Shown here: in pieces, positions 27,738 to 27,832 of the stretch
Layout of the letters: the number at the start of each line of letters is the position of its first letter
Numbering within the stretch: the first letter of the stretch is position 1
Assembly: GCF_029227855.1 (NCBI RefSeq)
Contig: NZ_CP074356.1
Length of the DNA stretch: 64,000 nucleotides
Source: Escherichia coli
GTDB taxonomy: Bacteria; Pseudomonadota; Gammaproteobacteria; Enterobacterales; Enterobacteriaceae
Strand: one strand, 5' to 3'
Made by a program: the position numbers and the translations under genes
The notes under the pieces: model-generated
Told to the model about the DNA's origin: nothing
Databases searched by the model: none
What the model saw: the letters and a program-made list of their open reading frames with translations, nothing else

Positions 27738-27832
27738 TCTTACATAGCTGGATATGGCGTCAGCCGTATCCAGCGATATCTTTTACTCGAAGGTATTACA
27801 CCTGACAGACCCGCAATTTTCAGGACAATTCA

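Follow-up and report, generated by a model that had tools for sequence, protein, structure and literature searches.

The relA–mazG junction of an Escherichia coli strain without mazEF: boundaries of the empty-site allele, its REP-like palindrome and its probable ancestry

Genes and spacer at the relA–mazG locus

The window analysed here is a stretch of 64,000 nucleotides from Escherichia coli (contig NZ_CP074356.1 of RefSeq assembly GCF_029227855.1), in which relA and mazG are direct neighbors within the gene order barA-rlmD-relA-mazG-pyrG-eno. The features recognized at the junction are listed in Table 1. A preceding sequence-only reading had placed the end of relA at 27737 and the start of mazG at 27833, with a 95-bp spacer between them in a region otherwise collinear; the open reading frames (ORFs) and profile matches established that these positions are exact, and the gene order bears out the collinearity. 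The closest complete relative is JNEC-KY178; within the first 34.7 kb of the window, a stretch that takes in this locus, the two sequences share 99.94% identity, and over 34–61 kb they share 98.9%. In this near-identical genome relA is annotated at the same coordinates, and mazG is the next gene in the RefSeq annotation, with none between the two; mazG is annotated as such in both JNEC-KY178 and strain MEI003. A 50-aa ORF at 27754–27906 lies in another frame and overlaps the start of mazG, and is regarded as spurious.

Table 1. Features at the relA–mazG junction (positions are those of the window)
Feature	Position	Strand	Basis
relA (GTP diphosphokinase, 744 aa)	25503..27737	+	NF008124 equivalog, 1674.5 bits, full length
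relA stop codon TAG	27735-27737	+	
relA–mazG spacer, 95 bp; empty-site allele, the mazEF insertion locus being unoccupied	27738..27832	+	
Segment exclusive to the empty-site allele, 61 bp, without K-12 counterpart	27738..27798	+	Pairwise alignment, blastn-short
Decayed REP palindrome GCTGGATATGGC-GTCA-GCCGTATCCAGC, then GATATCTTTT	27747..27774	+	12-bp stem, 4-nt loop
Weaker second predicted stem-loop GAUAUCUUU-UACUC-GAAGGUAUU	27775..27797	+	Part of the minimum-free-energy structure, prediction only
mazG leader common to both alleles, 34 bp	27799..27832	+	34/34 bases identical to K-12 (blastn-short)
mazG (nucleoside triphosphate pyrophosphohydrolase, 263 aa)	27833..28624	+	TIGR00444, 419.1 bits; NF007113, 370.2 bits

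The proteins MazE and MazF of K-12 gave no tblastn match across the 64-kb window at E ≤ 1e-3. No ORF for a MazE antitoxin (about 82 aa, too long for a 95-bp spacer) was found directly 3' of relA, and no ORF in the window matched a MazF/PemK-family endoribonuclease (about 111 aa) when K-12 MazF was used as the tblastn query. A mazEF promoter/operator following the relA stop codon was likewise not found, the spacer having no alignment to the first ~697 bp of the corresponding K-12 interval. With both the protein search and the alignment to the K-12 cassette blank, the claim of the sequence-only reading that no remnant of mazE or mazF is left here was upheld.

In the K-12 derivative JW5503 the genes are arranged as relA-mazE-mazF-mazG and the relA–mazG interval measures 731 bp, so that the K-12 order given by the sequence-only reading is correct. 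In K-12, mazG lies downstream of mazEF and forms one operon with it, relA-mazEFG (PMC7167474). The genes flanking this K-12 locus (chpA) are the same as those in the window. Correspondence between the two sequences runs as far as the relA stop codon and resumes, with 100% identity, in the 34 bp that immediately precede the mazG ATG. However, K-12 has ~697 bp containing the mazEF promoters, mazE and mazF at the place where the window has only the 61 bp with the hairpin described below. Because 61 bp are exchanged for ~697 bp, the two alleles differ by a replacement and not by a simple insertion or deletion, which argues against excision of mazEF from a K-12-like allele. Positions 27780–27798 weakly resemble the stretch of K-12 that immediately follows mazF (~11/16 bases, by eye), a similarity that was not accepted as homology.

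The palindrome downstream of relA

The spacer is predicted to fold with a free energy of -37 kcal/mol, compared with -21.0 ± 3.1 kcal/mol for shuffled sequences (z = -5.1), and none of 200 shuffles was as stable. Seven of the 12 base pairs in the stem of the main hairpin are G-C. The tail of the hairpin, GAUAUCUUUU, passes a permissive terminator rule, but its four U residues start 6 nt after the stem, and shuffles of the region give 0.5 such sites by chance. The hairpin that the sequence-only reading called relA-terminator-like is thus present and fits a simple terminator pattern, but it is not a peculiarity of this strain, and is instead the decayed form of a repetitive extragenic element shared across the Enterobacteriaceae, as follows.

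REP elements have a textbook consensus consisting of a GTAG motif and a GCCGGAT...ATCCGGC palindrome, and the GTAG tetranucleotide is the recognition motif of REP-associated transposases. Like these elements, the window hairpin is an imperfect palindrome of the GCCGGAT...ATCCGGC type, extragenic, and situated at the 3' end of a gene. When it was aligned with a REP consensus, 26 of the 30 aligned bases matched, and the resulting score of 39 was not reached by any of 2000 shuffled sequences (mean 17.8, maximum 32). Its arms read GCTGGAT and ATCCAGC, and ATAG (27743–27746) stands in place of GTAG. The species-level Escherichia lineage L003 (see below) has retained both GTAG and GCCGGAT, and GTAG is also found in the outgroups. 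The substitution of ATAG for GTAG marks it as a decayed copy.

A canonical REP palindrome, GTAGGCCGGATAAGGCG...GCCGCCATCCGGC, opens the spacer directly after relA in Citrobacter, Klebsiella and Enterobacter, and the window hairpin aligns to these REPs at the same position and in the same orientation. The spacer of Salmonella arizonae contains a REP remnant only. Among seven taxa, 83% of the cells in the stem alignment are paired, compared with 24–40% when the partners are slid, and two stem pairs show compensatory changes, including one from C-G to U-A in the window. By these alignments, the hairpin is a decayed REP element that has been conserved at its position across the Enterobacteriaceae.

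The second, weaker stem-loop takes in the T-run 3' of the REP, and its sequence is conserved in three Escherichia empty-site spacers. A promoter-like match, CTGACA-16-GACAAT (27802–27829), lies within the 34-bp leader and agrees with the consensus at 9 of 12 bases, as a pattern match only. Fraikin, Goormaghtigh and Van Melderen (2020) reported that in many mazEF-less strains, such as UTI89, relA and mazG "form undisturbed bicistronic operons" (PMC7167474). In the source strain of the window, relA and mazG would similarly constitute a two-gene unit, in which the REP hairpin with its short T-run is a candidate for a partial terminator and/or a stabilizer of the 3' end of relA mRNA, and mazG would be expressed by read-through and possibly also from the promoter-like site. 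By analogy with REP elements in general, the hairpin would probably attenuate transcription and shield the 3' end of relA.

A REP-containing empty site has been described elsewhere in the genome. At the ccdO157 site, between folA and apaH, the spacer of strains without the module contains REP sequences (PMC7167474). This site resembles relA–mazG in that a chromosomal type II module occupies a short spacer and REP is found there when the module is absent; however, the locus and the toxin–antitoxin family are different, and the comparison is drawn from the statement in that paper alone.

Frequency and origin of the empty-site allele

Using a 65-base junction query across the window-specific segment, we counted the empty site in 5,426 complete E. 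coli genomes. The empty-site spacer is present in 1,000 of them (18%), in a single copy each and always on the chromosome, and 985 of these 1,000 genomes match the query with at least 99% identity. The K-12-type mazEF cassette, counted at a coverage of at least 80%, was found in 4,416 of the 5,426 genomes (81%), always at the relA–mazG locus and never on a plasmid, with a median of one copy. The supposition of the sequence-only reading that relA and mazG are not directly adjacent in most E. coli is therefore correct: they are adjacent in 18% and have mazEF between them in 81%. These counts agree with the published statement that mazEF is "present in over 80% of sequenced strains" (PMC12151602).

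A chimeric query, in which positions 12000–14000 of the window were joined to mazE-mazF of K-12, was used to test for mazEF at other sites. It matched 9,848 places in 5,425 genomes, which leaves about 1,000 genomes without K-12-type mazEF anywhere, the same number as that of the genomes with the empty junction. JNEC-KY178, the top match of this query, has one matching place, meaning that no K-12-type mazEF exists elsewhere in it. Genome-wide absence here refers to K-12-type mazEF alone, as detected by a nucleotide search needing roughly 85% identity or more, with JNEC-KY178 as a stand-in.

The empty-site strains include Nissle 1917, JJ1887 (ST131), swine strains of serotype O139:H1 and environmental isolates, the backgrounds of which are unrelated. 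The sequence-only reading had taken the absence to be lineage-specific, but 1,000 genomes of unrelated background, together with two other species-level lineages of Escherichia, do not bear this out. The mazEF-less relA–mazG regions of UTI89 and CFT073 (PMC7167474; PMC7232551) have the same locus, the same gene order and the same lack of mazEF as the window. Nothing essential sets the window apart from them; its relA and mazG flanks are ~2% diverged from those of most other empty-site strains, and its lineage has a type I-E CRISPR-Cas system that seems to be complete.

About 10 genomes fit neither class and were considered as carriers of a third allele; the one examined, E. coli SW07163, turned out to be an IS1 rearrangement. 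In this strain (NZ_CM129852.1, L087:3905-5833), a truncated xni and an IS1 lie directly upstream of an intact mazF, there is no mazE beside mazF, and a second IS1 is located at a truncated ygcG. Its mazF is apparently a toxin gene separated from its antitoxin.

The state of the locus outside E. coli was surveyed by a MazG-based scan of the Enterobacterales with one genome per species, in which at least 80 loci were listed; E. fergusonii, E. marmotae, S. enterica and the main E. coli representative are absent from the 80 listed. The two genes relA and mazG are direct neighbors in 79 of these loci, mostly with a gap of 40–150 bp, and K-12-type MazE or MazF occurs in none of these 80 species loci among the matches listed. 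Salmonella subsp. arizonae (L012), the one Salmonella locus among the matches listed, has an empty relA–mazG spacer of 74 bp. The 95-bp spacer of the window recurs in two other species-level Escherichia lineages that were deposited under the name E. coli, namely L004 (93/95 identical) and L003 (86/95). These values are in line with the divergence of the flanks (92–96%), as vertical inheritance of the empty site would predict.

The situation in E. albertii NBRC 107761 (L005:2240-2500) is different. In its spacer of 261 bp, 27 of 30 bases of the start of the mazEF promoter are preserved, as are 15 of 15 and 55 of 58 bases from the 3' end of mazF and the sequence beyond it; REP-like palindromes lie between the two retained ends of the cassette. 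The E. albertii spacer is thus a genuine deletion scar of the mazEF cassette, whereas the window contains no cassette scar and has kept nothing beyond the shared 34-bp mazG leader. The two parts of the E. albertii scar are 90% and 95% identical to K-12, and the flanks 90.4% and 92.0%. Since the scar and its flanks have diverged from K-12 to about the same extent, the insertion of mazEF is old in Escherichia, and since E. albertii, a basal species, once had the cassette, a simple single gain inside E. coli does not account for its distribution within the genus. The occupied and empty alleles may have coexisted for a long time in Escherichia.

The sequence-only reading had left the choice between ancestral absence and deletion to alignments of the junction. 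These alignments, run against K-12 and the outgroups, speak for absence of the ancestral type and against deletion: positions 27738–27832 very probably represent a never-occupied, ancestral-type relA–mazG allele, and the K-12 arrangement a derived insertion that displaced the REP. The ground plan across the Enterobacteriaceae would thus be relA, then a short spacer with a REP-type palindrome, then mazG. In part of Escherichia, a cassette of ~700 bp, comprising the mazEF promoter, mazE and mazF, would have been inserted right after the relA stop codon in place of the REP-containing 61 bp. The cassette-bearing allele is now carried by ~81% of E. coli, including K-12, and the empty allele by ~18%, including the source strain. 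The two alleles thus coexist in the species, and homologous recombination in the conserved flanks, relA and mazG, appears to swap one for the other. The source strain would be without the ACA-specific endoribonuclease MazF and without any stress or anti-phage effects of mazEF.

Within E. coli the locus looks recombinogenic, and that exchange may bear on the history of the window itself. A segment of 4,029 bp (25842–29870), comprising the 3' part of relA, the spacer, mazG and the 5' part of pyrG, is 100% identical to MEI003, while the sequence beside it differs from MEI003 by ~1% and identity elsewhere in the window is 96–99%. This pattern is consistent with a recombination tract carrying the empty site. 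In addition, both mazEF-positive (SCU-172 and MS 21-1, with 2 places) and mazEF-negative strains are found among the nearest genomes at ppnN-queF, and classic mazEF varies within phylogroup B2. It has also been reported that CFT073 lacks classic mazF and that NRG857c has it (PMC7232551), and type II toxin–antitoxin systems have been linked to E. coli phylogeny (Fiedoruk et al. 2015, as cited in PMC7232551). Ancestors of the source strain that carried mazEF could therefore have taken in the empty-site allele of another lineage through homologous recombination in relA and mazG. In that case the spacer itself would still be of the ancestral type, although a loss of mazEF would have occurred in the history of the strain. 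We regard this allelic replacement as a possibility of a tentative kind: the direction of transfer is not readable from the tract, which is equally compatible with common descent.

It is very unlikely that mazEF has moved to another place in the source genome. The window affords a view of only 64 kb of that genome, and some E. coli have extra PemK-like mazEF copies on genomic islands (PMC7232551). However, JNEC-KY178 has no second match to K-12 mazEF, K-12-type mazEF is confined to the chromosome with a median of one copy in the 5,426 genomes, and the number of genomes without it equals that of the empty junctions.

A secondary, precise deletion of mazEF from a K-12-like allele in this lineage is hardly credible, even though type II toxin–antitoxin modules can be lost and E. 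albertii did lose mazEF at this very locus. Deletion cannot create the REP-containing 61 bp that K-12 lacks; this segment is homologous to the spacers of other Escherichia and to the outgroup REPs, and the window is without a scar such as that of E. albertii. An assembly artefact, in which mazEF was collapsed or dropped, has a negligible probability, since nothing specific speaks for it apart from many small gaps against the closest relative at 34–61 kb, and 1,000 complete genomes, each assembled independently, share the identical junction, as does JNEC-KY178, within the first 34.7 kb where the two sequences are almost the same.

The mazEF-less relA–mazG locus, in its probable ancestral-type form, is a real and ordinary variant that has already been published. 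Both the polymorphism and its interpretation are available in the literature (PMC7167474; PMC7232551; PMC12151602). What is added here is small: the exact boundaries of the alleles, the identity of the hairpin as a REP and the conservation of its position across genera, the E. albertii scar and updated frequencies. For this locus, K-12 should not be taken as the ancestral reference, mazEF being an accessory insertion between two genes that are neighbors throughout the Enterobacterales. The physiology attributed to mazEF, namely stress-induced death, persistence and defence against P1 and RNA phages, cannot be assumed for about one-fifth of E. coli, a fraction that includes the probiotic Nissle 1917 and the ST131 strain JJ1887.

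Other occupants of the spacer and other features of the window

It has been proposed that the toxin–antitoxin pair was inserted between relA and mazG independently of the function of these genes, and that such loci are plastic, parDE occupying the relA–mazG spacer in Salmonella spp. (PMC7167474). The parDE module is another type II system in the same spacer that is empty in the window. The mechanism by which chromosomal toxin–antitoxin cassettes reach such specific, REP-containing intergenic sites was called unelucidated in that paper (PMC7167474).

Further inserts were found among the loci of our scan. In Superficieibacter sp. 1612_C1 (L018:1563-2500), the gap of 939 bp contains the gene for a ParD-family antitoxin (TIGR02606, E = 8.9e-25); the ORF of 98 aa that follows it has no NCBIfam family match and looks ParE-like. 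The 1.8-kb gap of Buttiauxella agrestis ATCC 33320 (L042:710-2500) contains three genes, one for an Hcp/TssD tube protein (TIGR03344, E = 3.4e-56), one ORF of 261 aa and one membrane ORF of 109 aa; this insert resembles a small T6SS effector–immunity cassette. Superficieibacter electus (L016:1548-2500) has a lone 112-aa membrane ORF that is weakly similar to the 109-aa ORF of B. agrestis (29% identity, E = 0.003). In Pectobacterium, Brenneria and Samsonia (L062, L064, L065, L066, L069 and L073), the relA–mazG gaps are 345–418 bp long and contain no convincing ORF; these long spacers could hold repeat elements or non-coding RNA. The Superficieibacter and Buttiauxella inserts fit the published view of the relA–mazG spacer as a plastic insertion site.

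We put forward, as a speculative proposal that we consider doubtful at present, that the REP-bearing relA–mazG spacer is a recurrent landing site for small toxin-type cassettes across the Enterobacteriaceae (mazEF in Escherichia, the ParD-family pair in Superficieibacter, parDE in Salmonella and the Hcp-led insert in Buttiauxella), and that in Escherichia its occupied and empty alleles have coexisted since before the split between E. coli and E. albertii. The long coexistence is suggested because the scar in E. albertii matches its flanks in divergence and the empty site would be vertically inherited in other Escherichia lineages. If the proposal is true, it would imply a REP-associated integration mechanism and a presence/absence polymorphism maintained over a long time.

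The type I-E CRISPR-Cas system of the window extends from cas3 through cas2 (51730–60290), with two arrays of 10 repeats each at 34109–34686 and 60387–60964. Each array has one repeat–spacer unit fewer than its counterpart in JNEC-KY178. Phylogroup B2 strains mostly lack the I-E cas genes, and the presence of these genes thus suggests that the mazEF-less source strain is probably not a member of phylogroup B2. The cas3 gene appears to be split into a main ORF of 876 aa (51730–54360) and an 85-aa ORF in another frame (54171–54428), the latter of which reaches the expected stop of the 2,700-bp cas3 annotated in JNEC-KY178; the split is due to either a frameshift or a sequencing error. The alignment of 34–61 kb to JNEC-KY178 contains 82 gap openings.

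Between cysH and cas3, at 51241–51398 and 51383–51535, a sok antisense RNA (RF01794, 111.7 bits) overlaps a 50-aa Hok/Gef ORF. The window thus does contain a toxin–antitoxin module (type I), other than mazEF. The small RNA CsrB (RF00018, 382.9 bits) is encoded at 14715–15074, between syd and yqcC and within a few kb of barA (21341–24097).
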